Shown here in pieces: positions 11,008 to 49,475 of a stretch of 64,000 bases of DNA. The stretch is from a virus: IMG/VR virus record IMGVR_UViG_3300032053_000008. One strand, written 5' to 3'. A program made the position numbers and the translations under genes. The notes beneath the pieces are model-generated. The model was not told the DNA's origin and did not search any database. It saw only the letters and a list, made by a program, of their open reading frames with translations. The first letter of the stretch is position 1. The number at the start of each line of letters is the position of its first letter.

Positions 11008-12323
11008 GGGTTGGTATCTCCGGTATATATATCTGCCCCGTCAACATCACTATATGCAGTAGAGACTCTGGTTACCTCTAGAGCACAGCCGTAACTGAAA
11101 TTAGTGCTTTTAATTTTATCCCCAAGAGATCCGTTTAAATTGGCAATTACATCTACAGTAGCAACAGGTCCAGGCACAACAGAAATAAAAGCAAACCTAC
11201 TGTCTAAATAACCAACACCGCTACCAGCAACAAAAGTATCACCAATTACTATACTGTTATAAATACTGAACTTCAAGTCTATAGTTTCATTGGCCGTTAG
11301 TCCAGTAAAGGTAACCTTTTTCTGGCTGATGTTATAGCTAGTGACAGTTAAAGTAAGCCCAACATTTAAGCCGTTGATTACTTTAATTTTCCTGCCTATC
11401 ACTTTTAGCCACTCTGGTACCGTCTTGAAAACCATGGTACCAAGGCCGCTATTTATCACCACTTGGTCCGAAGACTGGTTAAAGGTGCCGTAGTCCCCAG
11501 ATACTATCTGGTGTATGATACCGTCATTTGCACCGGTTCCCGCTGCCTGGAAATACTTAGCTTTTTTGGCCGTAAGGTATTCTGGAGCTAGAGCATTAAA
11601 GTAGATGGTATTTGTAGTAAAGATCACGTCACCCGATTGAGTTAAATAGGTGTTTTCGTAATCATTAAAGCCAGTTATCGTATAGGTAGTTTCGTTTACT
11701 GGACTACCATCTCCCGCAGTTTCATAATAATACAAAGAGCTTGGGTTAGAGGCCATAAACGGCAAAGGGGTAGTAAAAATGGCTATACCAGCTGGAACAT
11801 CACACAAGCGCATACTACCCAAATAACCCTTAGATTGGTCTCTAACAAATTCCCTTATTTCCCTAAGGTTATATTGGCAATCATAGACAAATCTTGCCTC
11901 AGGGTAGTCGGTGTCTAGGCTGCCTTCTTGGGTGGTAAGGTAATTACCGTGTTGGCTAACCAGTGCGGACCTGACAGCCAATATAGGCTCTTCTGCTAAG
12001 GTCATCTTGCCGGGTTCTGTGCCTACCGGGTAAACCCTGGCTTGTTCTGGAGCATCTAACATACCGCCAGTAAACTGAGCTAGATTCAATGAACTTAGGT
12101 CTTGATTGTTTTCGAGCTTGACCGTTATAAATCTAGCGTCCCAGACCCTAGCTATGACCAGCTCGGTACTAAAAAGACCATTTTTACGCAAAATTAACTT
12201 TTGACCAACAAACAAACCGGTAGTAGTATACACTTCTATGGTGTTACCATTTACTGTTATATTCTCGATGGTTATACGGGGCCAAGTTTGGGCCGTCAAC
12301 CCTGAGCCTATTTGCTTGTCCAC
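11001..12323 (-). CDS. Hypothetical virion protein
   Basis: 440 aa, beta-rich; first gene of the fibre operon. Confidence 0.6.
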   Translation of the reverse strand: MDKQIGSGLTAQTWPRITIENITVNGNTIEVYTTTGLFVGQKLILRKNGLFSTELVIARVWDARFITVKLENNQDLSSLNLAQFTGGMLDAPEQARVYPVGTEPGKMTLAEEPILAVRSALVSQHGNYLTTQEGSLDTDYPEARFVYDCQYNLREIREFVRDQSKGYLGSMRLCDVPAGIAIFTTPLPFMASNPSSLYYYETAGDGSPVNETTYTITGFNDYENTYLTQSGDVIFTTNTIYFNALAPEYLTAKKAKYFQAAGTGANDGIIHQIVSGDYGTFNQSSDQVVINSGLGTMVFKTVPEWLKVIGRKIKVINGLNVGLTLTVTSYNISQKKVTFTGLTANETIDLKFSIYNSIVIGDTFVAGSGVGYLDSRFAFISVVPGPVATVDVIANLNGSLGDKIKSTNFSYGCALEVTRVSTAYSDVDGADIYTGDTNPC

Positions 12324-12349
12324 TTACGCCCCTTTTTGACCACCGGCAC

Positions 12350-12377
12350 TAAAGTTTTCATACAATTGTGCCGATAT
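12350..12377 (+). promoter_or_regulatory. Sigma-28-type promoter
   Basis: TAAAGTTT-N12-GCCGATAT, directly upstream of the plus-strand operon (RBS AGGAGG, start 12416). Confidence 0.75.
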
Positions 12378-12415
12378 AAGATTAAGATTCGGTTAAATTA
12401 CTTAGGAGGTAAAAA

Positions 12416-20695: not shown

Positions 20696-23356
20696 TTAGA
20701 TCTTTGTGGACTTACCAGACGGAAGCATTTTGACCGCCGATAAATCGCTAGTATGTTGATTTTTAACGGGTATTTTGTCGTATAGCATAACTGAGTTAGC
20801 GAAAGTAGGGGACTCATGTCCGCTAGCTTTCCAGCCTTTATACCCCATAGACTTCAGTTCATTGTGGACCAGGTCTGGGTGACTAAGCGCGTGTTCGCTT
20901 GGTCCGTAGTGCTCTTTGTGCTTGTCTTTTACCTTGGCAAACACTTTGTCTGGGTCTTTGGACAAATCGTAGATGTCTTTGTCTTTGACTTGTATATGGT
21001 ACCTGGACAAGTTGTTGAACATTTGTTCAGCGTCTTCTCCATTAGATCCGTAAGTATGCAAATAGTTTGCAGGTTTAAAACCTGGCATATTATGGTTAAG
21101 GTATTCCCGGCTTTGCTGGATACGGGCCTTTTCTTTGCCTGCCTGACCGGTAAACTGGAAAGATGGGTCTAGGGACTGAAGGTCTGGATGCCTACTAAAA
21201 TGGACTAGATCTAGCACCTTAAAATTATCTTCAGCTTTGGATATTTTGTCCCAAACACCCATTGCTGCGGGGGTTTGAAGCGAGGAACCTAAAACCTCTT
21301 TACCGGAAACTTTTTGGGCATGTTGATACATTGCAGTTGCCAGCCCTTTTCTTTGATGTTCAGGGAAAACATTAGTCATACCAGGCATAAGTTTATTTTC
21401 ATGGAGTTCGTGAGGAACAATTATGGTATGGCCAACTATCTGACCTTGTGGACTTTTTGCATAAACGTGAAGTTCATCGTGCTCTTCCTTGTCAGACAAA
21501 TCTTCATCTTGATTTGCCTTCCATTCATGAAAAACATGATAACCTTCTTTTCGCCAATCACCATTTTGGCCTTTTTCTAAGTCTTCAGCTTTAGATATAG
21601 CTTCAGACACCTTGCGATTGTGTTTTGTGTTTGACATCACAGCCAAAACAGCTTCAGTCAGGTTTTGGCCCATACCTGCCGTAAGGTTAATAGAATACTT
21701 TGTTTCCAATTTGGTCATAAAGTCGTAAAGTTCAGATTTTTCGGTAGGCGGCAGTGTAAATATAAAATCGCTACCAGCAAACCCCAGGAAATCTCCTGCG
21801 TGCTCTTCTATAAAAGACTCTATGTCTATTTTGATGTGTTGCAGCTTTTTGATTTTGTCGGTTAGCTCTTTTGTGCTGTTAGATTCCAGGGAGTCAACTA
21901 TGAAATCATATATGTCCTGGAAAGACAAACACACGGTAACCGGTTTGTATTTTTTGTCTTTTGGGTGACTTTTTTCTAGGGACTTAAAAAGCTCTTCGCT
22001 TGGCTTAGGCCAGCCAAGGTTTACCATAGTTTCTATGGCTATTTGCCTTTGTTCGGATTTACCAAAAGGACGATTTTTTTGACCCCATAAAGCATAAGCA
22101 TCCTCTGATTGTTGACCATCAGTACCTCTAATCTTCTTACCAGTTAACTTTTCTGCCATTACATATGCCGATGTTGCTAACCCTTTACGTTGATGTGTAT
22201 CTTCGGTATCACTATTAACAATACCCAGATGTTTTCCAGTATGATCGTGTTCGAAAATATAAAGCCCTGCCAACTTACCGCTTGGATGATAGGCATGAAT
22301 AATTACGCCATATTTATTAACTTTAGGGGTAAGTTTATAGCCTTCTTTTTGCCAATCACCATTTTGACCTTTTTCTAGGTCTTCGGATTTGTTAACAATA
22401 CCTTTACGCTTAGCCATTTCTCCAGCCCATTTGCTGACGTTTCTGTCTGGATCTCTAAGGCCCATCTGAACCGTGGTTTCATCTGCACCAGGATGAGACA
22501 ATAAAAGCTTTTTTATTCCCCACTTAGGATGGTTCATCATAAAGTTAAGTTCAGCAGGTTTATAGTTTTTATGTTTAGCCATATAAGGGGCTGCTGCAGC
22601 ACCATGAGTATGAGGGGCACCAAAGTCACTGTTAACTATGTCGGTAGTTGGGAACTTGGTGTTGTCTCTAGGCACATTTTTGTGGGGGCTTACAATAAAT
22701 TCGTCTTCGTGTCCGTGACCGGCTGGATCTGTGTCAGGGTGACCTAACTCATAGCTGAACCAAACGTTCTTTAAAGGAACGTGCTGGTGATGTTCATGTT
22801 GACCAAATTGTCCTTGAGTTTTGTCGGCTATGGAATACAAAGCATGGTCATCTCCCCTTTGGCTTGGGGTTATGTTCATGTTCCTAGCCAGACGCAAATG
22901 GGGGGTACCATTAAGTTGGTCTACGGCCTTAGGGGCATTTTGGGTAATAGTGTCATGCAAGCTACGCTGGTGAGCTAGTAGCTGCGGAACAATATGAGGG
23001 TTTTGGGCTAGACCGGCGCTAAGGCTATCTGTAGTTATGTGACCAATCTTTTTCGCGGCATTGCCTTGTTGGTGATGACTCAAAAACGCCTGGTCCATCA
23101 TTTTTTGTTGGTCTGGCTTAGATGCCGAATAAGCGTCAGCATTTTCAGATCTGTGGATAGCGTACTTTAGCAAAAGAGATGAAGGTGAATGGGGAGAATG
23201 CTTATAGCTAGAATACATCTCATTTAGTGTAGCATTTGGCTTAAAGTGCGGCGTAGGTGCGCTAATAGGCAAACTAGAATGGACCTGTAGCCCAATTTGC
23301 TTGTCTTGGCTGGTACTAGAAGACAATGCACTTGGGTGTTTAGTCATCGTTATCAT
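20696..23356 (-). CDS. Polyvalent multidomain protein: ART-like, HEAT, GNAT, mCpol-like, GNAT, ART-like
   Basis: Two HQRKGLAT acetyl-CoA motifs; R...S...EDEFIV ART pattern; AGMGQNLTEA mCpol-like motif; C-terminal HFS..LDP..GYKG pattern. The GNAT calls are firmer than the others. Confidence 0.7.
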   Translation of the reverse strand: MITMTKHPSALSSSTSQDKQIGLQVHSSLPISAPTPHFKPNATLNEMYSSYKHSPHSPSSLLLKYAIHRSENADAYSASKPDQQKMMDQAFLSHHQQGNAAKKIGHITTDSLSAGLAQNPHIVPQLLAHQRSLHDTITQNAPKAVDQLNGTPHLRLARNMNITPSQRGDDHALYSIADKTQGQFGQHEHHQHVPLKNVWFSYELGHPDTDPAGHGHEDEFIVSPHKNVPRDNTKFPTTDIVNSDFGAPHTHGAAAAPYMAKHKNYKPAELNFMMNHPKWGIKKLLLSHPGADETTVQMGLRDPDRNVSKWAGEMAKRKGIVNKSEDLEKGQNGDWQKEGYKLTPKVNKYGVIIHAYHPSGKLAGLYIFEHDHTGKHLGIVNSDTEDTHQRKGLATSAYVMAEKLTGKKIRGTDGQQSEDAYALWGQKNRPFGKSEQRQIAIETMVNLGWPKPSEELFKSLEKSHPKDKKYKPVTVCLSFQDIYDFIVDSLESNSTKELTDKIKKLQHIKIDIESFIEEHAGDFLGFAGSDFIFTLPPTEKSELYDFMTKLETKYSINLTAGMGQNLTEAVLAVMSNTKHNRKVSEAISKAEDLEKGQNGDWRKEGYHVFHEWKANQDEDLSDKEEHDELHVYAKSPQGQIVGHTIIVPHELHENKLMPGMTNVFPEHQRKGLATAMYQHAQKVSGKEVLGSSLQTPAAMGVWDKISKAEDNFKVLDLVHFSRHPDLQSLDPSFQFTGQAGKEKARIQQSREYLNHNMPGFKPANYLHTYGSNGEDAEQMFNNLSRYHIQVKDKDIYDLSKDPDKVFAKVKDKHKEHYGPSEHALSHPDLVHNELKSMGYKGWKASGHESPTFANSVMLYDKIPVKNQHTSDLSAVKMLPSGKSTKI
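21539..22390 (-). repeat. Two copies of K[S/A]EDLEKGQNGDW[Q/R]KEGY (22337-22390 and 21539-21592)
   Basis: 16 of 18 residues identical; each copy directly precedes a GNAT domain. Confidence 0.95.
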
Positions 23357-24455
23357 CCCCTATAATAACATGATAAGGGTCTTCTATTGGGCCGTCACCT
23401 AAAGTAGGGAAATCACTAGTAACTTGCCAAGATGGATTGTTTGGCTCGATAGGGTCAGTCAAACTAGTGCGTGGCTTATACCCAGCCCATCTACCTTTGT
23501 TATTGGGTCCATTAGGCCCATCTTCTATAAGAACTTGTCCTGTAATTACTTCCAGTTTAGGGGCAGCATGTTTAATCCAGGTGATTGGTACTACACCAGT
23601 CAAGGTTATATACCTAGAAAAAACAGTGTCGGCCTGGAAAGAATTATTTCTTTGAAGTGCGCTAGATGAAACTTTGGACAGCTCAAAAAGGCGACCTTCT
23701 AGGTAAGACTCTTTATATCGCATCAGGCAATACATCACAACCTGCCACATCCATATACAACATCCAGCATCGCCATTAGCATGACAAGCTATGGTGTAGC
23801 TTTCATTAATAAAAGAGATTTCTTGGTCTAGATTCCATACACCAAATTTGGTTCTGATGTGAGACCTGGAAAAGTTCTCCCTTAGATCAGGAGCTATTCT
23901 AAATGAATTGTTTCCGGTAACTTCGTATATTACATAAGCTTTATTGGTTTTGTTGGCTACCAGAAATTGGCCTTCTCTGATATTAGCCATGCTAACCGTG
24001 CTAGGCACAATAACTATACCAGTTACAGTGTCATAAGACTCTACGCTAAATGTAGGGGTAAGGTTTCTGGCATTTGTGACAATACCAGTTGGGTCAAATG
24101 GATCTATAAGCCTTTGGTCGCCCAAAGAGGTGCGGTCCATAGCTTCACTGTTGTCATTATACGAAACAATAATACATGGCACCGGAACCGTGTCGGCTAT
24201 ACGGTAAGCCAATAAAACAGGGATTTCATTATTTAAAAACCAGTTAGAAGCAGCTTCTACTTCTTTGTATCCATAGTCCTTAGAAGCAAGATAATCTTGA
24301 GCTAAGGTGCTAAATATGTCTTCAACTATCCACTTGTTTTTACGCAAATCCGCAATAGACGCTTCAAGCATCGTTTTTATCAAAATATCACTAGATAAAA
24401 CACCCATTATGCGCCCCTGAAATAGTCTTCTAAAGACTTTACTATTTTGTCCCAT
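23340..24455 (-). CDS. Neck/tail-completion-like structural protein
   Basis: Position in the neck cluster; start probably at the internal MGVLSSD; VFSRYITL resembles tail terminators. Confidence 0.5.
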   Translation of the reverse strand: MGQNSKVFRRLFQGRIMGVLSSDILIKTMLEASIADLRKNKWIVEDIFSTLAQDYLASKDYGYKEVEAASNWFLNNEIPVLLAYRIADTVPVPCIIVSYNDNSEAMDRTSLGDQRLIDPFDPTGIVTNARNLTPTFSVESYDTVTGIVIVPSTVSMANIREGQFLVANKTNKAYVIYEVTGNNSFRIAPDLRENFSRSHIRTKFGVWNLDQEISFINESYTIACHANGDAGCCIWMWQVVMYCLMRYKESYLEGRLFELSKVSSSALQRNNSFQADTVFSRYITLTGVVPITWIKHAAPKLEVITGQVLIEDGPNGPNNKGRWAGYKPRTSLTDPIEPNNPSWQVTSDFPTLGDGPIEDPYHVIIGDDNDD

Positions 24456-25258
24456 TCTTTAGTAGCATAATCGTATGCGGCAGGAATACTGTGAAGAGGT
24501 TTAACTTCGGGGTACATCCACCTTCCCTCTGCCTCATGCTTGCTACTTACAACCCTAAATGTAACTACTTCTTTTTTGACCTTACCTCTTTTAGATGGTC
24601 TTTGGACCACAACTCCACCTGACAGATAGTGAGCACCTTCGTAGTTTGGTAGCCCTAGAGCTTCAGCTTCATCAGCTGTACGCCCTTTAGACCGGTATTG
24701 GTATATGTTGTCGCTAGCCGGGTCATTTAACTGAGGGATGTCTTTTAGCCTGTTAACTATGCCAATCATTGGCATTCCATCGGGGCCTTTTTCGATTTTA
24801 CGCATACTGACGCCATTTGCCTTAAGGGAGGCATCTATAGCTTCTCTCATACCAGAAGGAGTGGTCAGAGCGTTTTTGTCATGGCTAAAAGGTATGACCT
24901 TGAATTTACTGCCATCTTTGGCAGTCTTAAGTCCCGGACCTGGTTTAAGCAGCCAGTCTTCTGTTGCCATACTCACGGCTGGCCTACCGCTCTCGACCCA
25001 CTTAGCTGATTCATCGATTTCTACTACCCACATATTCTTAGAAACTTGTATCCATCTGATATTGCTACCATCTTCACCTAAAAATGCTTCTAGTGGGTAA
25101 CCTTTTAAGTGGTCCTGAGCATACTTGATAATAAAAGCGTGGGTGGAAATAGAAAGGGCCTCTACAGCCCCATTCAATTTCTTTGCTACCTCTTTTTCTA
25201 CAACACCTAGCTTATCAGCTATTTCTTTGTAGTTAGCCCTTATGGTAAAGTCGGTCAC
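24407..25258 (-). CDS. Neck/tail-completion protein
   Basis: KTAKDGSKFKVIPF and TFRVVSSK..W.YP motifs, as in SPO1-like neck proteins. Confidence 0.6.
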   Translation of the reverse strand: MTDFTIRANYKEIADKLGVVEKEVAKKLNGAVEALSISTHAFIIKYAQDHLKGYPLEAFLGEDGSNIRWIQVSKNMWVVEIDESAKWVESGRPAVSMATEDWLLKPGPGLKTAKDGSKFKVIPFSHDKNALTTPSGMREAIDASLKANGVSMRKIEKGPDGMPMIGIVNRLKDIPQLNDPASDNIYQYRSKGRTADEAEALGLPNYEGAHYLSGGVVVQRPSKRGKVKKEVVTFRVVSSKHEAEGRWMYPEVKPLHSIPAAYDYATKEWDKIVKSLEDYFRGA

Positions 25259-26472
25259 TGCTGCTTAGCCTTTTGTTGTTGATTGTTGGCTTTTACCGAT
25301 ATATCAGTACCATCGGTAGCCTGAACTTGGCCTGAGGCCATTGAGCGCCATACTTCTTTACCGTTTACCAGAACTTTTTTGTAGTTGCCCTTGCGGGTTC
25401 CAACAGGGAAACGGATACCAGACATAGCCTGAGGACCAGAAGAACTGACGCCCTTTTTTTCTAGGTCTTGTTCAGATTTTTGAACTTGCTTGGCGCTGGT
25501 GATCAATTTCTGGATCATAGACATAGTTTGCTGGAAAGCTTTAGGGTCCTTGCTGGCCATAGCCATAATCTGAGGTATTTGCGCCTTAACGTCTTTAAGT
25601 TTGTCCATTAATTCTTGGTTGTGGTCGGCGGTAGCTTCTTTGGTAGCATCATCGACTTCTTGAGCTACTTCTTGTGCTGCCTGTTCTTGTTCCTGTCCGT
25701 CACCTTCGCCCTGTTGTTGTCCAGGTGCCTGTTGTTGTTGAGGCTGACCACTAAGTTGACCAAGCAAATCAGTAGTATTGGTATTAGCATGGGCATCTGG
25801 GTCTTCCTGGCCTTGCGGCTGTTGTTGTTGCTGGGCTTGTTGTTGTTGCATCATTTGCTGTTGTTGTTGAGCGGCTTGTTCGATTTCCCCGGCACCAAGC
25901 ATTTCATTTATGGCTTGAATAAACTGGGCTTCAGCGCTAAAACTTTCTTTTAGAGACATACGCTTGGGCACTGGATTAGATTTTTGGTCTATAACTTTTT
26001 GGTAAGGCTTGTCATCTGGCTGTTCTGGGTCAAATAGGTTGGTAGGCAAACTGACGTTTTGATTTATGTTTGTTCTTGAATTGGAAGTTTTTGTAATTTT
26101 TTCTTGGTAAGTATCTGCCGGATTAAAAAGTTCAACTTTACCAGTTTTATAAGATTTCTTGGCAGCCATTGCCGCTTCTTGGAAATCTAATCCAACACCA
26201 ATAGCCAGTCCATCTCCAGCAGTTTCGGTAAAGTTTTCAATTAAATTAGGTAGTTCTGCCGCTACATCAATAGGTATTTCCATAGCTATAAAGTCTGGAT
26301 TACAAAATGGCATAGATCCACCGTGGGATTCCACAGTAGATTTCATTTTGTCTATAAGTCCCTGTAATTCAAACTGATAATGGTTGGCTACGCTAAATCG
26401 GCCCTCTTTGGCCGAATTAATTAGTTTGTCTCTTACTGCATCCGCAAATATAACTGCCCATACCTTACTCAT
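25255..26472 (-). CDS. Protein with N-terminal mCpol/GGDEF-like palm domain and Gln-rich linker
   Basis: AIGVGLDFQEAAMAAKKSYKTGK; polyQ; KSEQDLEKKG motif near the C-terminus. Confidence 0.55.
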   Translation of the reverse strand: MSKVWAVIFADAVRDKLINSAKEGRFSVANHYQFELQGLIDKMKSTVESHGGSMPFCNPDFIAMEIPIDVAAELPNLIENFTETAGDGLAIGVGLDFQEAAMAAKKSYKTGKVELFNPADTYQEKITKTSNSRTNINQNVSLPTNLFDPEQPDDKPYQKVIDQKSNPVPKRMSLKESFSAEAQFIQAINEMLGAGEIEQAAQQQQQMMQQQQAQQQQQPQGQEDPDAHANTNTTDLLGQLSGQPQQQQAPGQQQGEGDGQEQEQAAQEVAQEVDDATKEATADHNQELMDKLKDVKAQIPQIMAMASKDPKAFQQTMSMIQKLITSAKQVQKSEQDLEKKGVSSSGPQAMSGIRFPVGTRKGNYKKVLVNGKEVWRSMASGQVQATDGTDISVKANNQQQKAKQQ

Positions 26473-29457: not shown

Positions 29458-29858
29458 AAAGTAAACATCCTTTTGATTCTATCAAGGAAAGTCGGCTTGT
29501 TGTGTTCTGGTTCGATTTCCTTGTCTTCAAAGGCATTGTCTCTAATAATATGCTCTTTTTGATCTTCTCTGGCCCGATACTCTAACCACTTATAAAAATC
29601 AAAAGAAAAATCAATGCTTTTAGGTAGCTGCAATTGAGTTTTAATTAATGGTTTTTCTTTATTAAAATGGGCCGCCAAATAAGAAGTACTGTTAAAATAC
29701 CTCAATAAGAAAACTTTTGCTTCATCAAGATCTTTTGCTTTGTCTAGCATAAGGCTTATGGATGGGTAACTTTCAACAATTGGTTCCATGTCAGACCAGT
29801 TGTTAACTTTAAACTGTTTTTCTTCATTGCTCATGGTGTTTTTAACTATTAATATCAC
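29454..29858 (-). CDS. Hypothetical protein
   Basis: Operon context. Confidence 0.55.
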   Translation of the reverse strand: MILIVKNTMSNEEKQFKVNNWSDMEPIVESYPSISLMLDKAKDLDEAKVFLLRYFNSTSYLAAHFNKEKPLIKTQLQLPKSIDFSFDFYKWLEYRAREDQKEHIIRDNAFEDKEIEPEHNKPTFLDRIKRMFTL

Positions 29859-31164
29859 CTAAGAATTTCCTTACCTTGTGTGACATAAACGGAGTTAAAT
29901 GTTTGGCCCCATTTGGCATCTTGTCGTCATGGGCAAGTATATCACGGAGTTTAAGTTTGTCTAGGTGTTTATGGTAGTCAGTTTTTTTGCCGTTGTCTTG
30001 CATAAGAGCTTTAGTTATATGAAGTTTGGCTTGGATTCCATTGTCGTTATGTGGAAAATTACCTAATATTTCTAACAATTTATCTTTAGGTATATCATTA
30101 AACTGCTCTTTGCCTGTAGCTGAGCCAACAGCTTCAGATATATCCCATGGATTATGAGTTTTTCCATGCAAAGATTTAGCTACGTGATTTAAAGCTTTGT
30201 CTGGGGTACCATCAAGATATAGAACATTACTTTTGTTTTTTGGTTGATCTGCGGAAATATCCGAAAAGAATGGTTCATGCCCAGCTAAAGTGTCATTTGC
30301 CCATTTAGTCATGGCATCGTGTCTGGATTTATAAGAAGATACTATGTGATTTTTCCAGTCATCATGTTTAATGCCGTTAGCTTCATCAATCAAAGAGCCT
30401 TTAACTTTTGGAGCACTATTTAACCACCAAGATGCTAAATTTTTAGCATGTTGGTGGTCTCTATCGGCCTCTGGAGTAAAACGATATAAAGCACTGTTAC
30501 GCGTTAAGTCTTCCATTGAGTTAGTACCACGATCATAACCAAAAGCGAAAGAGTGATCAATAGCTAGTGGACTGTGATACCCTTTTTGGTCTGGAAGATT
30601 ATTGGCCATTATATTGCCAGAATGTCTGTCAATATTACCTGTAAGGTAGTCCATTACATTAATTTTATTAGCAACAAGTGGATCTATTTGATGTTTTTGA
30701 TGGTTATATTCTTCAGTATTATCAGCAAACTTGTGGACCATTACCGGCATTTCACCAATAGAAGTGCTTAGAGTGTGGTGTTTTACATCTTCGATGTTGT
30801 GGTGTAGGCCAGCCGCTTCGTACATTCTTTTTGTGGCTGAGGTAGCAAATCCACCTAAACCGTTGTTTACTTTAGAGTTATAAGGCTTAACCATAAACGT
30901 ACTGTTTGGCGTTTTGTATACCAGCTTGTCTTCATACCCTTCAGCCATATTTTTAGGCTTGTGGTGTTCGCTAGAAGACACGGCTTGATCAAAGTCCGCA
31001 TGACCGCCAGCAGATTGGGTAGGTTTCAGATATGACGCAGATTCTTCATTGTGGGCCTTACTAGCAAAATCAGTCAATGAGGGCTGGTCTAGCTTTTTAG
31101 CCAGCAACTGTTCAGTAGGTAAGTACTCAGGTTGAGTCCTTAGTGTATACCACGCCTTTATCAT
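29842..31164 (-). CDS. PI3K/PI4K/HipA-like kinase
   Basis: FMVKP catalytic Lys; DYLTGNIDRHSGN catalytic loop; LAIDHSFAF Mg-binding motif. Confidence 0.75.
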   Translation of the reverse strand: MIKAWYTLRTQPEYLPTEQLLAKKLDQPSLTDFASKAHNEESASYLKPTQSAGGHADFDQAVSSSEHHKPKNMAEGYEDKLVYKTPNSTFMVKPYNSKVNNGLGGFATSATKRMYEAAGLHHNIEDVKHHTLSTSIGEMPVMVHKFADNTEEYNHQKHQIDPLVANKINVMDYLTGNIDRHSGNIMANNLPDQKGYHSPLAIDHSFAFGYDRGTNSMEDLTRNSALYRFTPEADRDHQHAKNLASWWLNSAPKVKGSLIDEANGIKHDDWKNHIVSSYKSRHDAMTKWANDTLAGHEPFFSDISADQPKNKSNVLYLDGTPDKALNHVAKSLHGKTHNPWDISEAVGSATGKEQFNDIPKDKLLEILGNFPHNDNGIQAKLHITKALMQDNGKKTDYHKHLDKLKLRDILAHDDKMPNGAKHLTPFMSHKVRKFLGDINS

Positions 31165-32062: not shown

Positions 32063-32500
32063 TTACACCCTATAAGATTTTTGACCGCTAAGATGTATAG
32101 CCAGGTCTGTAGCTGTTTTAAAGAAAGTCATTTTAGTTTGAGTAGGGGTTAGGTTAGGTGGGGTAACCATGCTAATTTCATCTAGCTGCACCTCAAATCC
32201 GCCAAAGGAAATGCAGTCAGATGGGCCAACAGTTACTTTATAGATAGACTGGTCACCAGCAAAAGCTTGTACACCAACACGCTCAAAAGCATCGGCTTCA
32301 TCTAAACTAGCAAAAAGAACAGTAACTGTGTTGCTGATATCGCCCTGGGGTATATAACGAATAAGCTCACCACTACAGTTTGTTTTGTAGAGTTGAAAAT
32401 ATAGATCCTGGGTGTTGGTCTTTTGGAAATGAAGTTCGTCTTCTACGCAATATTCATTAGGACCACAAACGTTGCTTAGGAACTTGAAATAATACATCAT
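32063..32500 (-). CDS. Hypothetical virion protein
   Basis: Operon context. Confidence 0.55.
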   Translation of the reverse strand: MMYYFKFLSNVCGPNEYCVEDELHFQKTNTQDLYFQLYKTNCSGELIRYIPQGDISNTVTVLFASLDEADAFERVGVQAFAGDQSIYKVTVGPSDCISFGGFEVQLDEISMVTPPNLTPTQTKMTFFKTATDLAIHLSGQKSYRV

Positions 32501-33096
32501 TACTTTGGCCCTTTTTGCATAGGACGATTAAACCCTAAAACAGTTGTGGAAGGTAAAAAACAAAACTCTGGCATACCAATATGGTCTACTAGACCGTATT
32601 TTTTAGCTTGCATAGGAGTCATAAAAAGATCTACGTTGCCTTGACCTTTTATTAATTCTTTCCATTCATCTGCACTAAGTTTGGTATCTTCACCTAGCTG
32701 TTTAATCATCTTTTTATTAAGGTTATCTAGCATTTTAGCTGAATTTTGAAATTCAGCGTTTTTACCCCCTATTTCACTTAGGGAAACTTCATGAACCATA
32801 AAATCTGATTCATGGGTAGCAAAACGATATCCAGCAGAACCGGAAGAGGCTAAAAGAGCACCGCAAGACATTGCTTTACCTACTACAACAGTTGCTACAG
32901 GTTTAGAGGCTCTTTTAATAAGAGATCTCATTGCTTGGCAATTATGATATTGTCCGCCGTAACTATTTATAAATATAGTGATTTCATTAGAGTCTGAAAA
33001 GAACTCTAAAGCATAAAAATGCTGGTAAAACTTTTCTACATCCTCATCTTCAAATTCATTTACCCAAATATAAGGCAGAACGTCTGGGGATGTCAT
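32500..33096 (-). CDS. clpP: ClpP-family serine protease
   Basis: FINSYGG, AMSCG (Ser), MVHE (His), DLFM (Asp), AKKYGLVDHI. Confidence 0.9.
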   Translation of the reverse strand: MTSPDVLPYIWVNEFEDEDVEKFYQHFYALEFFSDSNEITIFINSYGGQYHNCQAMRSLIKRASKPVATVVVGKAMSCGALLASSGSAGYRFATHESDFMVHEVSLSEIGGKNAEFQNSAKMLDNLNKKMIKQLGEDTKLSADEWKELIKGQGNVDLFMTPMQAKKYGLVDHIGMPEFCFLPSTTVLGFNRPMQKGPK

Positions 33097-33104
33097 AAAA
33101 ACTC

Positions 33105-33899
33105 CTAGTCCAGTGATACTGGTTCACCTATGGTAATATTAGGGTCTGATTCGTCTTTTTGTGGGATTTTAACAATAATTTCGGTATGTTGGTGCTCTTT
33201 AAGAGTTCTTTTTAAGAGACCTTCTACAGTTTTCTTTAGCTTAGCCTCAGAAGGGGATTGCTTAAGGTGCTCTTGACGTTTTTTCCTTAAATTGCCGCGC
33301 TTTACGGCTGGAACTAAGTCATCAGCTAAACCTAGATTCACTGCATCTTGGGCTGACATCCAGGCGTCTCTACCTGAACTAAGGAGTTGTTTATAGAATT
33401 TTTCATCCATGATAGAATTGTCAGCATAAAACTTACACATCTTGTCGTGTAACAGGTCGCCTTCAATCATATCAATCTTATTGTTGGTATATTTGTCTTG
33501 CATAAACGAGCTGTGTTCATGCAGCATTATTCTGGTGTTTGGATACAAATACCTTTCATCACACGCAACCATCAAAAGACTGGCAGCAGAACATATCCAG
33601 CCGCCGCCATAGAACTTGATTTGACAACTAGAGGCCAAGATAAAGTCAATAAGATAAAAGGCATCGGCGGTACTTCCACCGCTAGAGTTCATGTACAAAG
33701 AAATTGGGGCTTTGGGGCTATCATGGATCATCCTGTTCATGCCACGTATAGCTGTTTCCACAGTTTTGGAATTAAATGAAGTAAAGTCGTCTTCGTCAAT
33801 ATTGTCAGGGGAAATACCAAAATGAATAATACGATTTTTAGTGTCTATTCCATAGACTAGAAAGTCATCTATTGCTGTCTTTTCTTTCTGTGTCGCCAT
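33105..33899 (-). CDS. clpP: ClpP-family serine protease (second, divergent paralogue)
   Basis: YMNSSGG, CSAA (Ser), MLHE (His), DAWM (Asp), AVNLGLAD; C-terminal extension. Confidence 0.88.
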   Translation of the reverse strand: MATQKEKTAIDDFLVYGIDTKNRIIHFGISPDNIDEDDFTSFNSKTVETAIRGMNRMIHDSPKAPISLYMNSSGGSTADAFYLIDFILASSCQIKFYGGGWICSAASLLMVACDERYLYPNTRIMLHEHSSFMQDKYTNNKIDMIEGDLLHDKMCKFYADNSIMDEKFYKQLLSSGRDAWMSAQDAVNLGLADDLVPAVKRGNLRKKRQEHLKQSPSEAKLKKTVEGLLKRTLKEHQHTEIIVKIPQKDESDPNITIGEPVSLD

Positions 33900-35202: not shown

Positions 35203-36612
35203 TTAGCTCAAGTTTTGGATCAAGACGTTTTTACGTGGCTCATAGCCAGCAAGTGTCAAGAAGCGGAAGTGAGCTTCTGGGACGCTCAAGTCAGCTACAG
35301 CCAGTTTCAAGCGGCTATATGGTGCAAGTTCACCCATACCCCAGGTGTCTTTCTGGACAAGGTGACCAGTAACGAAGCCTGGGATGCGGTTGCCCAAGTC
35401 AACAAACGCAGTCGAAGCTGGTGTGTCGATTTTGACGCGACCGATATACTTAGCGTCAGAACCATCGGTTTTGAAACCACGGTATACGCTGAAGAACAAA
35501 GTGCCAGCGCCTGGGGAAGCGATAGTAAGGGTGATTTTTTGACCAGCAGTAGCAGCTTGGGTTACAGTAGAGCTACGTGGGGATTCGCCGCGCTCGTTAG
35601 AAGCGGTAACGAAGTAAACGTAGGTAGCAGCAGCCAAAGATCCGCCAGCAGCAGCAGCAGCCGTTGGAACAACAGGAGCATTAGGGGAACCGATGGATGG
35701 ACGCAGTGGAGCAGTTTTACCCGACAAGAATCGGCTGTCTTCCAGAGCGATCGTACCATTAGAAACCCACTGACGACGAAGGTCAGCACCGGAAGCGTCT
35801 TGAGCCGAACCGGCCAAGTGAATACGCTGGATAGAAGCACCGGCATTAGAGCCACCGTTCAAAGCAACAGCTTTGTTATAACCAGCAAGAACGATTGGGT
35901 CAACAAGCAGCAATTCTGCTTTACCCATGTTCATACGGCTACGAACAGCGGAATCTTCAATGATGCCTTGGCTGAGGGAACCGTTTTGGTTGAGGACAAC
36001 CGACTGGTTCGAGCCGTAGGAATCAAACATTAAGTCTTGAGTGTTGAGCAAGTAGTCAGATTGCGTAACTTGGCACTCAACGCCAAGGATGTTTGGCAAT
36101 TCTGGCATAGCAAGTGGGTTACAGTCAAACACACCAGCATTGCTGAAGTCGGCTTTTCCACGGAAAAGATCGAATTCGATGTCGCCAGCCAGTTTCATAG
36201 CTGCGTTTTCAGCTTCACGGTCGGAACCGCCTTTGCCGTCAAACGTGTCAACCATGTTAGCTGCAACAGTTACCCGACGAACGGTCGAGTAAAAGCACAT
36301 TGGCACAGTTGCTCGGATGTAATCACCCGTGTCAACATCACCAATAGCGCCTTCGCGCATAGCCGTTCCACCGAAATGACCGTAGCTTAGCTGACGGTTA
36401 AATTGCATCAAAAGTGTTTTGACTTTTTTAGAGCCAAACATTTTTTGCAATTTAATGTGACTGTCATCGAAAGTCACGTTGTACATAACCGAAGACAGAT
36501 CTTCGATTTGAAGGGCCGAGCCTTGTACAAGCGTACTAGGAGCAGCATTGTACTGACCAGCCGTCAAGGTCTTGACGAGTGATTCTAGTTGTTGATTGAG
36601 ATTGTCAAACAT
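35203..36612 (-). CDS. Major capsid protein (SPO1/Herelleviridae-like)
   Basis: KTLTAG..GSALQIEDL N-terminus, IEFDLFRG, C-terminal L..YEPRKNVLIQNL; Ig-like insertion; follows the scaffold; terminator downstream. Confidence 0.9.
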   Translation of the reverse strand: MFDNLNQQLESLVKTLTAGQYNAAPSTLVQGSALQIEDLSSVMYNVTFDDSHIKLQKMFGSKKVKTLLMQFNRQLSYGHFGGTAMREGAIGDVDTGDYIRATVPMCFYSTVRRVTVAANMVDTFDGKGGSDREAENAAMKLAGDIEFDLFRGKADFSNAGVFDCNPLAMPELPNILGVECQVTQSDYLLNTQDLMFDSYGSNQSVVLNQNGSLSQGIIEDSAVRSRMNMGKAELLLVDPIVLAGYNKAVALNGGSNAGASIQRIHLAGSAQDASGADLRRQWVSNGTIALEDSRFLSGKTAPLRPSIGSPNAPVVPTAAAAAGGSLAAATYVYFVTASNERGESPRSSTVTQAATAGQKITLTIASPGAGTLFFSVYRGFKTDGSDAKYIGRVKIDTPASTAFVDLGNRIPGFVTGHLVQKDTWGMGELAPYSRLKLAVADLSVPEAHFRFLTLAGYEPRKNVLIQNLS

Positions 36613-37520
36613 TATTTTTTACTCCTAAGTATTTCGATTACTTTGTCTTTGCCTGCATAATTCAAAATGTAGTTATTAACGAGATCACGTTCTGATTTGT
36701 TCAGTGTACCCGATCGGCACACGTCATTCAGACTAGCTTTCAAAGCTTCATCCGACATTTCAGCAAAGTTTGGCTGAGCTGCAGCTTGCGCGGCAGGAGC
36801 TTCGCTTTTTGAGATGTACTGGATTTCAGAAGTGATTGCTTTTCTTACTGGTTGGGCAAGAATTTTAACCGCTTGCAGAGCTTTATCAAGGCCAGCTTTG
36901 AGTTCGTCATTGCTTTTCTTTAAGTCTGCAACTTCCTTGGCCAAACCATTGGTTTCTGATTTTTTCATAGCTGGTGAACTCATTTCACCGCATTTGTCCA
37001 TTTCTTCTTTAGCTATCCCAGCCTTAATTTGGCCGCCGTTTGCTTCAGGAGCTTTTTCGGCTTTGGAGTATTGCTGCTGGAGCAATCCACGGATAACCAT
37101 ATAGTGGCGCTCTAGCTCTTCTGGAGCCATAGAGCTATACACTTGCTGAAGTTCTTCATCAGACAAATTCTGGTCTTGAGCAGGATCTTGGCCTTCTTGA
37201 CCTGGTTCCTGTTGTTCTTGACCTGGCTGTTCTTGTCCTTCTTGACCTTCAGCTCCTTCTGCCATTCCTTCACCAGCTTCTGGCGCTTCTTGTACTGAAG
37301 CTTGATCTTCAGCACCAGCAGCGGCTGGAGCTTGGGCTCCAGCATCAGCGGCGGGGGCGGCAGGTGCAGCTGGGGCCGGGGCAGCAGCAGCTTGGTCGGC
37401 TGGAGCTTCCTGGTCGTCGCCAAAACCCTTAGACAGATCTTCAGACTTTTTCATGGCTTCAGCAAAAGCTGAGTCAAGGTCTGCAAGAAGATCGTCCAGG
37501 CTCACCTGTACGTTTTTCAT
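36612..37520 (-). CDS. Capsid scaffold protein
   Basis: Acidic, Ala/Gln/Glu-rich coiled coil directly upstream of the capsid gene; several KSE motifs. Confidence 0.7.
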   Translation of the reverse strand: MKNVQVSLDDLLADLDSAFAEAMKKSEDLSKGFGDDQEAPADQAAAAPAPAAPAAPAADAGAQAPAAAGAEDQASVQEAPEAGEGMAEGAEGQEGQEQPGQEQQEPGQEGQDPAQDQNLSDEELQQVYSSMAPEELERHYMVIRGLLQQQYSKAEKAPEANGGQIKAGIAKEEMDKCGEMSSPAMKKSETNGLAKEVADLKKSNDELKAGLDKALQAVKILAQPVRKAITSEIQYISKSEAPAAQAAAQPNFAEMSDEALKASLNDVCRSGTLNKSERDLVNNYILNYAGKDKVIEILRSKK

Positions 37521-46645: not shown

Positions 46646-47401
46646 TTAACCTCTTTGTTCGGAGTATTCATCATACCCAAAACCCTTGAAAGTTATAGTA
46701 CCGCGAGCATTAAATCCATAGCCTGGCGGCAACATTGACAAAACGTGTCTACAGTGAGGGTGAGTGCAGCCAACAGTGGCTACCGGATTACGCCAGTCTT
46801 TGTTGTAGCCATCTTTAAGTTCCGACAGTTTATATACTTTTGGCACATAAAGGTCATCGGTGTGCCACAGCTTTTTGCAATTTACGCACAACTTAGCGTC
46901 TACTACACCAAGTTTCATTACGGTTGGGTCATCTTCCCCAATAGAAGCTCCAAGCTGTTCAATACCGGCTCTTTCGGCGTAAGCTTGGACGTTCTTTATT
47001 TCTGTGTTAAGGACGGTGCTGACATACTTAGAAGCTTTGTCCATACCGTCTCTGACTAAGCCTTCAACCTGGTCTAATTCTATGCCTTGTTCTGCAGCCA
47101 TAGTCAGATTGTTGATGGTCTTCAGGCGCTCTGCGTCCAGGTAGTTGGCGGTGATTTTTGCCATGCTTTTGATGCGCTTTACGTCTACTTTGGCATCTGG
47201 ACCGTACATCATGCCGATAGTATAGCGATAAATTCCTTCCATAGAATCAATCGGGTCTTGATCACGGATTATTTCAAAATAGATCGCTGGGCCACGGAAA
47301 AACCTTCCTAACAGTCTCGCCTTGAGTCTGTTAAAAAGGTCGTTTACGTGGGCTTCGATTGCCTTTTTTTGATTATCCGTCAACATCATGGTCGTGGTCA
47401 C
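46646..47401 (-). CDS. MuF-like head morphogenesis protein
   Basis: TE..., CVNC, HPHCRH; directly follows the portal. Confidence 0.7.
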   Translation of the reverse strand: MTTTMMLTDNQKKAIEAHVNDLFNRLKARLLGRFFRGPAIYFEIIRDQDPIDSMEGIYRYTIGMMYGPDAKVDVKRIKSMAKITANYLDAERLKTINNLTMAAEQGIELDQVEGLVRDGMDKASKYVSTVLNTEIKNVQAYAERAGIEQLGASIGEDDPTVMKLGVVDAKLCVNCKKLWHTDDLYVPKVYKLSELKDGYNKDWRNPVATVGCTHPHCRHVLSMLPPGYGFNARGTITFKGFGYDEYSEQRG

Positions 47402-49475
47402 AATCTTCGTGGTCTTCGTTTTTAGCTAAGGTGCCGTTTTGGATATCTGCTACAATCTTTCGTACAGCTTTTTCCGAATCTTTACGCCACGCTAGAAGAT
47501 TTTTGTCCACAATTTGATTGTGTCTAGCTAGAAGCATTTTGCTGATAGCTGTATGGTTGGTTTCCACAGACTTGTTAAGTTCAAAAAAGGTAGCGGCCAG
47601 TTCGCTTTTTTGAGCTGGTTGACCAGTATCCTGGTCACCAGAGGCTTCCTGACCACTATCCTGTCCATCTTGGCCAGGTTGCGGCTGTTGCTGAGGCTGT
47701 TGCATCTGCATAGCCATTTGTTGGTTTTGCATGGCCATTTGGGATTTCTGGATAGCTAATTGCATCTGTTGGAAATAGAAAGGATCTCTGATGTAGTCGT
47801 ATCTTGGATCTTGGGCTGCCCCTTCAATGCCAAAAAATGCTTCCATCATAAAACCGACTGTAAGGTATGGAGCAACACTGGTTTGCCATTGCTGGTTCAT
47901 GATAAATTGACCGCCAAGCTCTTTACCGAGAACTGGCTTTTCTACAGTCTTAAGGATATCATCCATGGTCATATGGACGTTCATATCCTGGCTAAGACGA
48001 GTAGATTCTTTTTCTGGATCGTCTTGTTCCAAACCAGCTAAAATAAGCTGGAACTCTTTACTGAACTCTTCATCAAACTTAGGCAAAATGTGTGTGTTTA
48101 GTAAGTCCTGGATATCATACATCAAAGGACGTAAACCTACGTCACGAGCGGCGATAAGTTTGTATTCATTGCTGGTTTCTGACAAAGTCTGAGAGTTAGA
48201 GCCACGGCTAAGGTGGGCATAACCTGGCAATTCTTCTGGTGACATTTGGAATGCACCAAGAACTATTCGAGCCGTGTCGTCAGACAAAAACTGGAACTCT
48301 TTGTCTCTACCAGCAGAATCTGTGGTCTGGAAAATAATGTCGTCTTCGCTGCCGATACCAAAAACTGGCATACGGTAACTGTTTTTGACCGAGTTAATAC
48401 TGGCATGGAACTGGTTACGGATCTTTTGGATCGTGCCTTCGTCTATGTCATCAGACTTAAAGACCAACATACCCCTAGCAGCTCGACCGTTTTCAAAGAA
48501 CAGTTTATTCTGGAGGGAAATGCTGATATGGGTAATAACGGCGTTAAGGGCCTGGTCGATAGGGGTTAAAGGGTAGCCGTTGTATTCAATATTGGTTGTT
48601 GGAAATATGTTGTACACAACCAATTCTTTTTCGGTGAACACTTGAACTGGGGTACCATTGATAACCTGGACCCATTTGTATTCATCTTTTTCATATTTGG
48701 AAATATCGAACTTTTTGTCATCAAGTTTTTCCAACATACGCATAGCAGCAATACGCTGTTCTTGGTCATGGCTAGCGCTTGGGATAATACGGTAGATAGT
48801 ACCAGCATCTACTGCCCTAAATGCCACGCAAACGTTTTCACCACGGTCGGTGTCATTAGCGTAAATAAATTCGGTAGCTGACCGACCAAAAAGGAGGGCA
48901 TCCCTGGTGGTCATCTTAAGGAACTGAGACAAGTTTGGATGCCAGTCTTCTATGACTCTGTTTGACCCACAGTTCCACATCACTTCTTTGATTTTTTCGA
49001 TGCGTTTTTGAATTTCTTTTTGCTGGTCTGGAGTTTCATGTGGTTCTGGATGCATTTGCTGGAATTCAAAGCCAACGCTAAAGCGGCTAGTTCTAGGACG
49101 ACCAAAAGACGCCAGAGTATTAGATCTAGCTTGCAAAATTTGGTTAACCAGGTCATCACCTTGAGGACCAGCAATACGCTTAAGGATAGGATCTGGGGTT
49201 AGGTTGGTTTTTTGGCGGTAAGTAGATACAGTTCCAAGGTTGGCATCCCTTGGGTCAAGAGTAAAAGCTAGGCGAATGTCATGTTCCCTGGCTTTTTCAC
49301 TCTTACGCAAAGAATCTAGAATCAACTTAAGGCTTCCACCTTTGTCGTCTTGAGGTTCTTTTTCGTCAGCTTCCATAGCTTTAGCTATTTTGTAGCTATT
49401 AGCATCCAAGGCAAACACCTGGGTTTGATCTTCCTTAGCTTTTTTAGATTTATTCAGGAAGTCCGAGCTATCCAT
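47373..49475 (-). CDS. Portal protein
   Basis: VDAGTI, GYPLTPI, FFENGRAARG, AFQMSPEEL, GLRPL motifs; between terminase and protease. Confidence 0.88.
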   Translation of the reverse strand: MDSSDFLNKSKKAKEDQTQVFALDANSYKIAKAMEADEKEPQDDKGGSLKLILDSLRKSEKAREHDIRLAFTLDPRDANLGTVSTYRQKTNLTPDPILKRIAGPQGDDLVNQILQARSNTLASFGRPRTSRFSVGFEFQQMHPEPHETPDQQKEIQKRIEKIKEVMWNCGSNRVIEDWHPNLSQFLKMTTRDALLFGRSATEFIYANDTDRGENVCVAFRAVDAGTIYRIIPSASHDQEQRIAAMRMLEKLDDKKFDISKYEKDEYKWVQVINGTPVQVFTEKELVVYNIFPTTNIEYNGYPLTPIDQALNAVITHISISLQNKLFFENGRAARGMLVFKSDDIDEGTIQKIRNQFHASINSVKNSYRMPVFGIGSEDDIIFQTTDSAGRDKEFQFLSDDTARIVLGAFQMSPEELPGYAHLSRGSNSQTLSETSNEYKLIAARDVGLRPLMYDIQDLLNTHILPKFDEEFSKEFQLILAGLEQDDPEKESTRLSQDMNVHMTMDDILKTVEKPVLGKELGGQFIMNQQWQTSVAPYLTVGFMMEAFFGIEGAAQDPRYDYIRDPFYFQQMQLAIQKSQMAMQNQQMAMQMQQPQQQPQPGQDGQDSGQEASGDQDTGQPAQKSELAATFFELNKSVETNHTAISKMLLARHNQIVDKNLLAWRKDSEKAVRKIVADIQNGTLAKNEDHEDCDHDHDVDG

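Follow-up and report, generated by a model that had tools for sequence, protein, structure and literature searches.

Two degenerate mCpol-fold palm domains in late proteins of a large uncultured phage related to Myxococcus phage Mx1

Why should a phage carry, among the genes for its particle, two domains that resemble an enzyme of bacterial anti-phage defense? The domain in question is mCpol (minimal CRISPR polymerase), known from the OptS synthases of Panoptes systems (Pfam PF18182, NCBIfam NF033576; PDB 9mnr, 9pd0 and 9nwn), where it is a stand-alone protein encoded beside a 2TM-beta or CARF-TM effector and constitutively synthesizes cyclic di- or trinucleotides (PMC12657218, PMC12657230, PMC13577387). 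A first-pass annotation of IMG/VR record IMGVR_UViG_3300032053_000008 placed degenerate mCpol-like segments in two genes of a virion cluster, and we analyzed these in a 64,000-nt window (bases 40815–104814 of the 136.8-kb record) from what is a large uncultured relative of Myxococcus phage Mx1. The genes of the window lie on the minus strand nearly throughout. The two of interest here encode a 405-aa protein, P0001, and an 886-aa protein, P0002 (coordinates in Table 1), and the cluster is indeed a virion cluster: both genes have two ClpP-like head protease genes on one side and those of the tail sheath and tube on the other.

We conclude that residues 1–118 of P0001 and 473–585 of P0002 are true palm domains of the mCpol superfamily, diverged homologs of the mCpol/Cas10-palm cyclase fold. 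The segments lie, and read, as first quoted, and the profile search then recommended, with hidden Markov models (HMMs) of mCpol and GGDEF, matched Pfam mCpol in both proteins. In P0001 it is the top match (17.8 bits; residues 11–114 on model positions 7–110 of 114) and in P0002 the sole Pfam match other than GNAT (residues 481–575), each covering nearly the entire 114-position model. Against the curated cut-off of 26.4 bits, P0001 falls short both as a whole protein and as the domain alone (20.1 bits), while P0002 scores 22.1 bits by hmmscan and 26.5 bits in a six-frame scan of the whole record, a scan that pointed to exactly two places, the other scoring 19.5 bits. The sole NCBIfam match for both is NF033576 (16.8 bits for P0001 and 19.4 for P0002, against a cut-off of 40), and mCpol is the only cyclase-type match for either protein in the two libraries. 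The GGDEF model (PF00990) matched neither at E ≤ 10. Among all PDB sequences, and again at E ≤ 10, the P0002 segment found only 9mnr and 9nwn, both mCpol, at E of about 0.1; the P0001 domain, alone or as a three-sequence profile, found no mCpol sequence there. PHROGs offered no family, and PADLOC nothing relevant, for either protein.

The first-pass annotation had also remarked that the two segments follow the same layout. A BLASTP comparison of P0001 with P0002 is not significant, and the kinship is visible at the profile level only: with orthologs recovered from two Logan assemblies (L003 and L005), hhalign of the three-ortholog profiles gave 79.8% probability (E 1.4e-5), and in a joint alignment the six sequences run colinearly along some 115 residues, 12 columns being invariant.

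The predicted structures are palms, and not the non-palm fold that the first-pass annotation had named as its refutation; they fit mCpol best. AlphaFold2 (AF2) models of P0001 residues 1–125 (predicted local distance difference test, pLDDT, 94.3; predicted template modeling score, pTM, 0.86) and P0002 residues 465–590 (pLDDT 92.3, pTM 0.84) both have the palm layout strand-helix-helix-hairpin-helix-strand-helix. In Foldseek searches six mCpol chains (9pd0/9nwn/9mnr) came out on top for P0001, at E 6.5e-7 and template modeling (TM) scores of 0.65–0.73, and the same six chains for P0002, at E 1.1e-6, TM 0.74–0.80 and root-mean-square deviation (rmsd) 2.1–2.7 Å; after them, for both models, ranked GTP cyclohydrolase III, GGDEF domains, class III cyclases and Cas10. 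VIA-align placed mCpol first for the P0001 model (Z 13.2–13.8, rmsd 2.4–2.6 Å over 116–118 residues), the next family following at Z 11.0. Single-sequence models from the ESM Atlas had an mCpol cluster as best match for both regions (TM 0.78–0.80), so the result does not rest solely on alignments that contain canonical mCpols. In these predicted models the superposition on solved mCpol structures is full-length.

One might still suppose that chance or composition produced the resemblance, given scores that lie below or at the curated cut-offs and a P0001 domain that by itself matches no PDB sequence. However, two independent HMM libraries each show a match that is colinear and full-length, profiles are linked transitively down to E 4e-15 (described below), and two high-confidence models fit mCpol best. 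Together these results refute the explanation as far as computation goes, and we put its probability at next to nil.

The active site has fared differently from the fold. In KpOptS, the triphosphate is bound by metals that D6 and D57 hold in place, and S30 and N34 select the base, the S30 position being described as variable (PMC12657218); the metal residues of Cst mCpol are D11 and D63 (PMC13577387). The GGDD-type hairpin motif is only semi-conserved in the mCpol family. Strand 1 of both phage domains aligns to KpOptS without a gap and puts F9 of P0001 (IFADAV) and S478 of P0002 (LSFQDI) in the D6 column, and in the hairpin (CNPDF in P0001, AGSDF in P0002) the GG of GGDD is gone. The erosion of the DGD and GGD motifs reported earlier is real, and the strand-1 metal Asp needed for the canonical two-metal reaction is missing in both copies. 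Both retain the fold-determining Gly/Ala positions and a hairpin Asp (D60 in P0001, D530 in P0002) that is invariant among orthologs, and a second Asp (D11 or D481) stands two to three residues after the lost D6 position. The S30 position is occupied by Q33 and I502, respectively, and the N34 position by Gln in all six aligned sequences (Q37 in P0001, Q506 in P0002).

This pattern bears directly on the earlier suggestion that the two domains pair as a heterodimeric cyclase, each half supplying what the other lacks. mCpol active sites are assembled across protomers, KpOptS being a dimer of dimers (PMC12657218), and in the phage 2 kb separates the coding regions of the two domains, which belong to a single late module. 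But the D6-position residue lost, and the hairpin Asp kept, are the same in both copies, so that there is no complementarity and mutual complementation would be impossible. Moreover, P0002-type proteins occur in only three clusters and P0001-type proteins in about a hundred, which means that most phages with a P0001-type protein have no such partner. We consider heterodimeric complementation highly improbable.

Neither domain is decaying. Between the window and L005 the P0001 domain has a nonsynonymous rate (dN) of 0.016 and a synonymous rate (dS) of 0.54 (dN/dS 0.03), and for the P0002 core the corresponding proportions are pN 0.085 against a saturated pS of 0.77; both domains are under strong purifying selection.

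Selection for what? The distribution of P0001 relatives is informative here. Word-based searches found only four close relatives of P0001 (among them homologs 58% identical in L003 and 97% identical in L005) and two of P0002. A HMMER search with a joint profile against 1.84 billion proteins recovered 129 cluster representatives at E ≤ 1e-3, mostly proteins of 380–420 aa with the domain at the N-terminus. Pfam mCpol is matched by 66 of the 104 relatives scanned (best 1.1e-21) and Cas10-Cmr2_palm2 by 16 of the 104. Compared with the PDB, the family profile finds mCpol at 4e-15, and a profile of the degenerate clade to which P0001 belongs (40 full-length members) still has mCpol first, at 1.1e-3. 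Since all members of about 400 aa have the acidic linker and the helical segment that follow the palm in P0001, these are full-length relatives rather than proteins that merely share a domain.

The gene also has a fixed place. In L003, L005, L008 (a 110-kb contig), L010, L012, L013 (a 98-kb contig) and Myxococcus phage Mx1 (169.6 kb) it occupies the same slot, with a gene for 290–370 aa on one side and a pair of genes for about 250–290 and 330–370 aa on the other, a few genes upstream of the sheath and tube genes. P0001 is thus the local form of a core syntenic gene in the head-to-tail module of Mx1-like myoviruses, whose palm ranges by lineage from canonical to fully degenerate, a point that the first-pass annotation overlooked. 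Mx1 is the only cultured phage matched, by tblastn with the slot protein P0046 of L008 against 50,697 phage records; P0001 itself matched none of these records by tblastn, and at the DNA level 7.6 kb of the region matched nothing in the phage collection. Pattern scans of IMG/VR with P0001, A1 and A2 returned no true relatives. Two IMG/VR matches to A1 (L006 and L007) were rejected as spurious, the matched frame being different from that of the local tail genes.

Across 122 aligned domains the D6 column is most often Asn (39), followed by Ser (28) and Asp (18), and the Asn was checked directly against a PDB sequence. Of the slot proteins that look intact, most have NGDD and not DGDD, with SGDE kept; they are P0046 (L008:8001-9239) and 38 other cluster representatives. 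In a tree of the family one group comprises small canonical DGD...GGD[DE] proteins together with slot proteins that have those motifs, and the NGDD...SGDE proteins form a large clade; further clades are the kinase-fused one (P0084), an Mx1-like one without any acidic position and that of P0001. The Mx1 homolog (WNM70340.1) has neither metal-site acid and is a fully degenerate copy. No member of the P0001 clade has a strand-1 D-x-D, and nearly all carry the C-terminal PVGT...WRS...ISV module; here the S30 column is not conserved and the strand-1 residues vary (S, A, F, N, R). Compared with canonical P0068 in L010 or NGDD...SGDE-type P0046 in L008, then, P0001 has the same slot, N-terminal palm, acidic linker and helical segment, but its clade has no acidic residue in the D6 column and has an additional module after a K-[SA]-E motif. 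The LP.NLFDP motif just past the palm is kept across the degenerate clade and could be a docking peptide.

Might the domains still be enzymes of altered chemistry, whether an NTPase, an activity like that of GTP cyclohydrolase III, or a cyclase that uses D11/D481 and D60/D530 as ligands? The invariant hairpin Asp with a second Asp shortly past the lost D6 position, the strong purifying selection, the match of the P0002 model to GTP cyclohydrolase III (E 1e-5) and the many slot homologs that retain NGDD...SGDE or DGD...GGDE would all suit such a reading. It has to contend with the disappearance of the canonical strand-1 Asp from both copies, with a clade in which the S30 column is not conserved and the strand-1 residues vary, and with an Mx1 copy devoid of every acidic position, and we regard it as unlikely.

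In the neighborhood of the slot we also observed kinase genes. The module of P0001 and P0002 includes a PI3/4-kinase-like gene (window 29842-31164), whose Pfam score of 25.8 bits falls slightly short of the cut-off. Mx1 has an annotated kinase gene upstream of its slot, and in one relative the slot itself is filled by a fusion of mCpol with an APH-type kinase (kinase loci L013:9001-11943 and L011:3886-5745). These arrangements hint that the kinase and the mCpol module are functionally connected. In L013 an HNH endonuclease gene (11946-12404) separates the mCpol-kinase gene, which it directly follows, from the conserved gene downstream, and has the look of a homing-type insertion.

The second copy sits in a very different protein, a circumstance also overlooked at first. 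Its homolog in L005 (L005:10001-12775) is about 90% identical and that in the more distant L003 (L003:13097-15076) is 659 aa long, and alignment of the three resolves P0002 into conserved cores and variable cassettes (Table 1). The cores are more than 90% identical between the window and L005, whereas the two cassettes are wholly different in sequence in L005 and are absent from L003. Every junction carries K-[SAT]-E, and the variation among the three phages points to cassette exchange at K-[SA]-E junctions. P0002 is therefore a polyprotein specific to this lineage: of its three conserved cores one is the mCpol-like unit, with exchangeable GNAT cassettes on either side, and several unrelated enzyme-type modules (GNAT and mCpol-like) are joined in one virion-module protein. 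Within the mCpol-like unit a helix with KLQH.KIDIESFI is nearly invariant between phages whose domains are otherwise 41% identical.

The junction motif is not confined to P0002. In the form [ILVMF]-x-K-[SA]-E, which was defined and refined after inspection of the data, it occurs 16 times in the 51 proteins of the window against 3.25 ± 1.8 times in shuffled sequences (maximum 11 in 500 shuffles), an enrichment of about five-fold. Four copies are at P0002 junctions, four are in the 302-aa protein encoded directly upstream of the capsid gene, and one, at capsid residues 229–233, directly precedes the region that matches the capsid family; the remainder occur singly in the portal, in P0001 (VQKSE), in a 371-aa protein upstream of P0001, in a 157-aa protein and in three others. 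In the P0001 clade and in Mx1 a K-[SA]-E is found at the same place, after the helical segment. This is the pattern expected of prohead-protease sites and makes the motif a candidate signal for the ClpP-like head protease. T4 internal proteins are processed by a prohead protease, and T4-type sites end in Glu. P0002 resembles such proteins, and the polyvalent or head-packaged multi-domain phage proteins, in stringing together enzyme-like modules (two GNATs) with Glu-ending junction motifs; unlike in T4, the protease here is ClpP-like, and packaging and cleavage are suggested by gene position and motif enrichment. Polyvalent proteins of this kind are attributed to Iyer et al. 2017 in the passage of PMC7824862 that cites that work.

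Taken together, the slot of P0001 and the polyprotein context of P0002 favor a structural or cargo role over immune spoofing for both copies. We think it probable, if not strongly so, that both are non-catalytic mCpol-fold modules of late, protease-processed proteins that are probably packaged in the head. The palm domains of this lineage would have lost cyclic nucleotide synthesis and would serve as compact modules of late proteins, perhaps self-associating or ligand-binding, self-association being plausible in view of the KpOptS dimer of dimers. P0001 and P0002 would be loaded into the prohead, and the ClpP-like protease would cut after [ILVMF]-x-K-[SA]-E, freeing the modules of P0002 and detaching the basic C-terminal module of P0001.

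Several considerations weigh against this interpretation. Packaging, cleavage and lack of activity are things that we infer, all three of them, and the cleavage motif took its form after the data had been inspected. The surviving hairpin Asp, conserved Lys/Gly-rich C-terminal helix and invariant N34-position Gln are compatible with nucleotide binding or a non-canonical reaction, and D60/D530 align with D57 or one residue later, that is with the first or the second acid of GG[DE][DE], depending on the alignment. The AF2 input alignments included canonical mCpols, which may bias the models toward the mCpol fold, and the P0002 model fits GTP cyclohydrolase III well too (TM 0.71). Finally, a degenerate cyclase domain need not be inert: the degenerate GGDEF domain of GdpP/YybT has ATPase activity, according to the work cited in the relevant passage of PMC7824862.

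GdpP/YybT and the c-di-GMP receptors such as LapD (PDB 6pwk) offer a parallel for what has happened here, in that the cyclase motifs were lost and the fold was kept as a binding, regulatory or weakly hydrolytic module. GGDEF-type structures are neighbors of both our models; they rank below mCpol, and the phage domains differ from degenerate GGDEF domains in the failure of the GGDEF HMM to match and in their virion-module context. With Panoptes mCpol the phage domains share the minimal palm fold from end to end, some 115 residues (Z 13.8, and TM as high as 0.80), the order of secondary structures, the G.G strand, the EA..A helix and one hairpin Asp. Unlike Panoptes mCpol they have lost the strand-1 metal Asp and the GG turn and score below or at the curated cut-offs, and they are fused into late proteins of 405 and 886 aa whose neighbors are head, connector and tail genes, with no adjacent 2TM-beta or CARF-TM effector.

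If the dead palms do bind nucleotides, they could soak up the cyclic-oligonucleotide alarm signals of the host as sponges or decoys, or work as sensors controlling the co-packaged GNATs or the kinase; the first-pass annotation had proposed sponges too, and dominant-negative partners. In favor are a fold of the nucleotide-binding type, the retention of the Lys/Gly-rich C-terminal helix and of the N34-position Gln, the KLQH.KIDIESFI helix of P0002, which has hardly changed, and the GNAT cassettes and kinase-like gene alongside, with the APH-kinase fusion in one relative. However, the P0001 clade as a whole has not conserved the pocket residues, a fixed slot amid connector and tail genes suggests a role in assembly, and we know of no sponge with an mCpol fold. 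The genome has no 2H phosphodiesterase, a search of the 136.8-kb record for 2H phosphoesterases (PF13563) having found none. We judge nucleotide binding of this kind distinctly unlikely. A bolder version holds that the mCpol-fold modules of Mx1-like phages are head cargo, that intact lineages supply decoy cyclic nucleotides on entry (for example, silencing Panoptes-type guards) and that the dead copies described here are nucleotide-binding decoys or regulators of the GNATs or kinase. We find it improbable; if true, it would amount to a virion-delivered counter-signaling kit.

The wider setting is that of a late module (Table 1). Between the proteases and the sheath lie about 15 poorly annotated genes, including the PI3/4-kinase-like gene, one for a "virion structural protein", P0001 and P0002. 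A pair of ClpP-like protease genes stands in place of one gene, an arrangement kept in L003 and L005. The giant open reading frame (ORF) between portal and capsid genes has a 1876-aa counterpart in L008, and its Mx1 counterpart, likewise giant, carries the annotation NUDIX hydrolase.

Table 1. Positions in the 64,000-nt window of P0001, P0002, their parts and the surrounding late genes
Feature	Position	Strand	Basis or remark
P0001, slot protein, 405 aa: palm, acidic/Q-rich linker, helical segment, basic C-terminal module	25255..26472	(-)	full-length relatives
P0001 mCpol-like palm, residues 1-118	26119..26472	(-)	Pfam, AF2, Foldseek, VIA, dN/dS
P0001 Q/E-rich low-complexity linker, residues 119-285	25618..26118	(-)	sequence, clade consensus
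P0001 LP.NLFDP motif, residues 132-139	26056-26079	(-)	LPTNLFDP here, clade consensus LPPNLFDP
P0001 helical segment, residues 286-329	25486..25617	(-)	clade consensus including IPQIM and NP.AF; in nearly the whole family, including Mx1
P0001 VQKSE, residues 330-334	25471..25485	(-)	candidate head-protease site (putative cleavage), position conserved in clade
P0001 basic C-terminal module, residues 345-405	25258..25440	(-)	PVGT...WRS...GQV...ISV; invariant P356, W375, R376, G381, S392; defines degenerate clade
P0002, modular polyprotein, 886 aa	20696..23356	(-)	alignment with P0008 and P0009
P0002 N-terminal core, residues 1-325, His-rich, VNKSE at end	22382..23356	(-)	no Pfam or PDB sequence relative
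P0002 cassette 1, residues 326-435, FGKSE at end	22052..22381	(-)	GNAT-like by resemblance to cassette 2
P0002 mCpol-like core, residues 436-591, ISKAE at end (palm proper, residues 473-585, 21602-21940)	21584..22051	(-)	Pfam, PDB, AF2, Foldseek
P0002 cassette 2, residues 592-709, GNAT acetyltransferase, ISKAE at end	21230..21583	(-)	PF00583 28.7 bits, residues 604-685
P0002 C-terminal core, residues 710-886	20699..21229	(-)	strongly conserved; no Pfam or significant PDB sequence relative
Large terminase	50507-52399		early in reading order of minus-strand module
Portal	47373-49475		after large terminase
Giant ORF, 1929 aa	38629-44418		between portal and capsid genes; no PHROG family
302-aa protein	36612-37520		directly upstream of capsid gene
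Major capsid protein	35203-36612
Two tandem ClpP-like head-maturation proteases (264 and 198 aa)	32500-33899	(-)	phrog_94, E 1.5e-26 and 7.8e-22
Tail sheath, 914 aa	16220-18964		tube next in reading order

To our knowledge, studies of mCpol have so far been confined to its part as the synthase of bacterial Panoptes guards, and in the literature that we searched nothing links it to phage virion proteins, polyvalent proteins or jumbo phages. New here are a degenerate clade that carries a C-terminal module of its own, a second copy inside a polyprotein of modular build and, as a caution, Asn in place of the first metal ligand in many slot proteins. The mCpol fold is kept at the front of a core particle-module protein in a large clade of uncultured myoviruses and in cultured Mx1; an entire clade, and Mx1 too, can lose the catalytic Asp even as strong selection maintains the domain, and a second copy can be built into a cassette-swapping polyprotein. 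Loss of the Asp under selection and the polyprotein copy argue that the conserved job of the fold is not simply the synthesis of a signal nucleotide, which tempers the reading of intact copies as a means by which the phage makes its own immune nucleotide. Mx1 can be plated on M. xanthus. Switching on the host island that encodes a cyclic oligonucleotide-based antiphage signaling system (CBASS) and type III-B CRISPR blocks Mx4 but leaves Mx1 unblocked (PMC11506125), an insensitivity that by itself says nothing about the slot gene. Mx1 offers a tractable system for the slot protein, and slot proteins whose metal site has D, N or S/F form a natural series for probing the function of the module.

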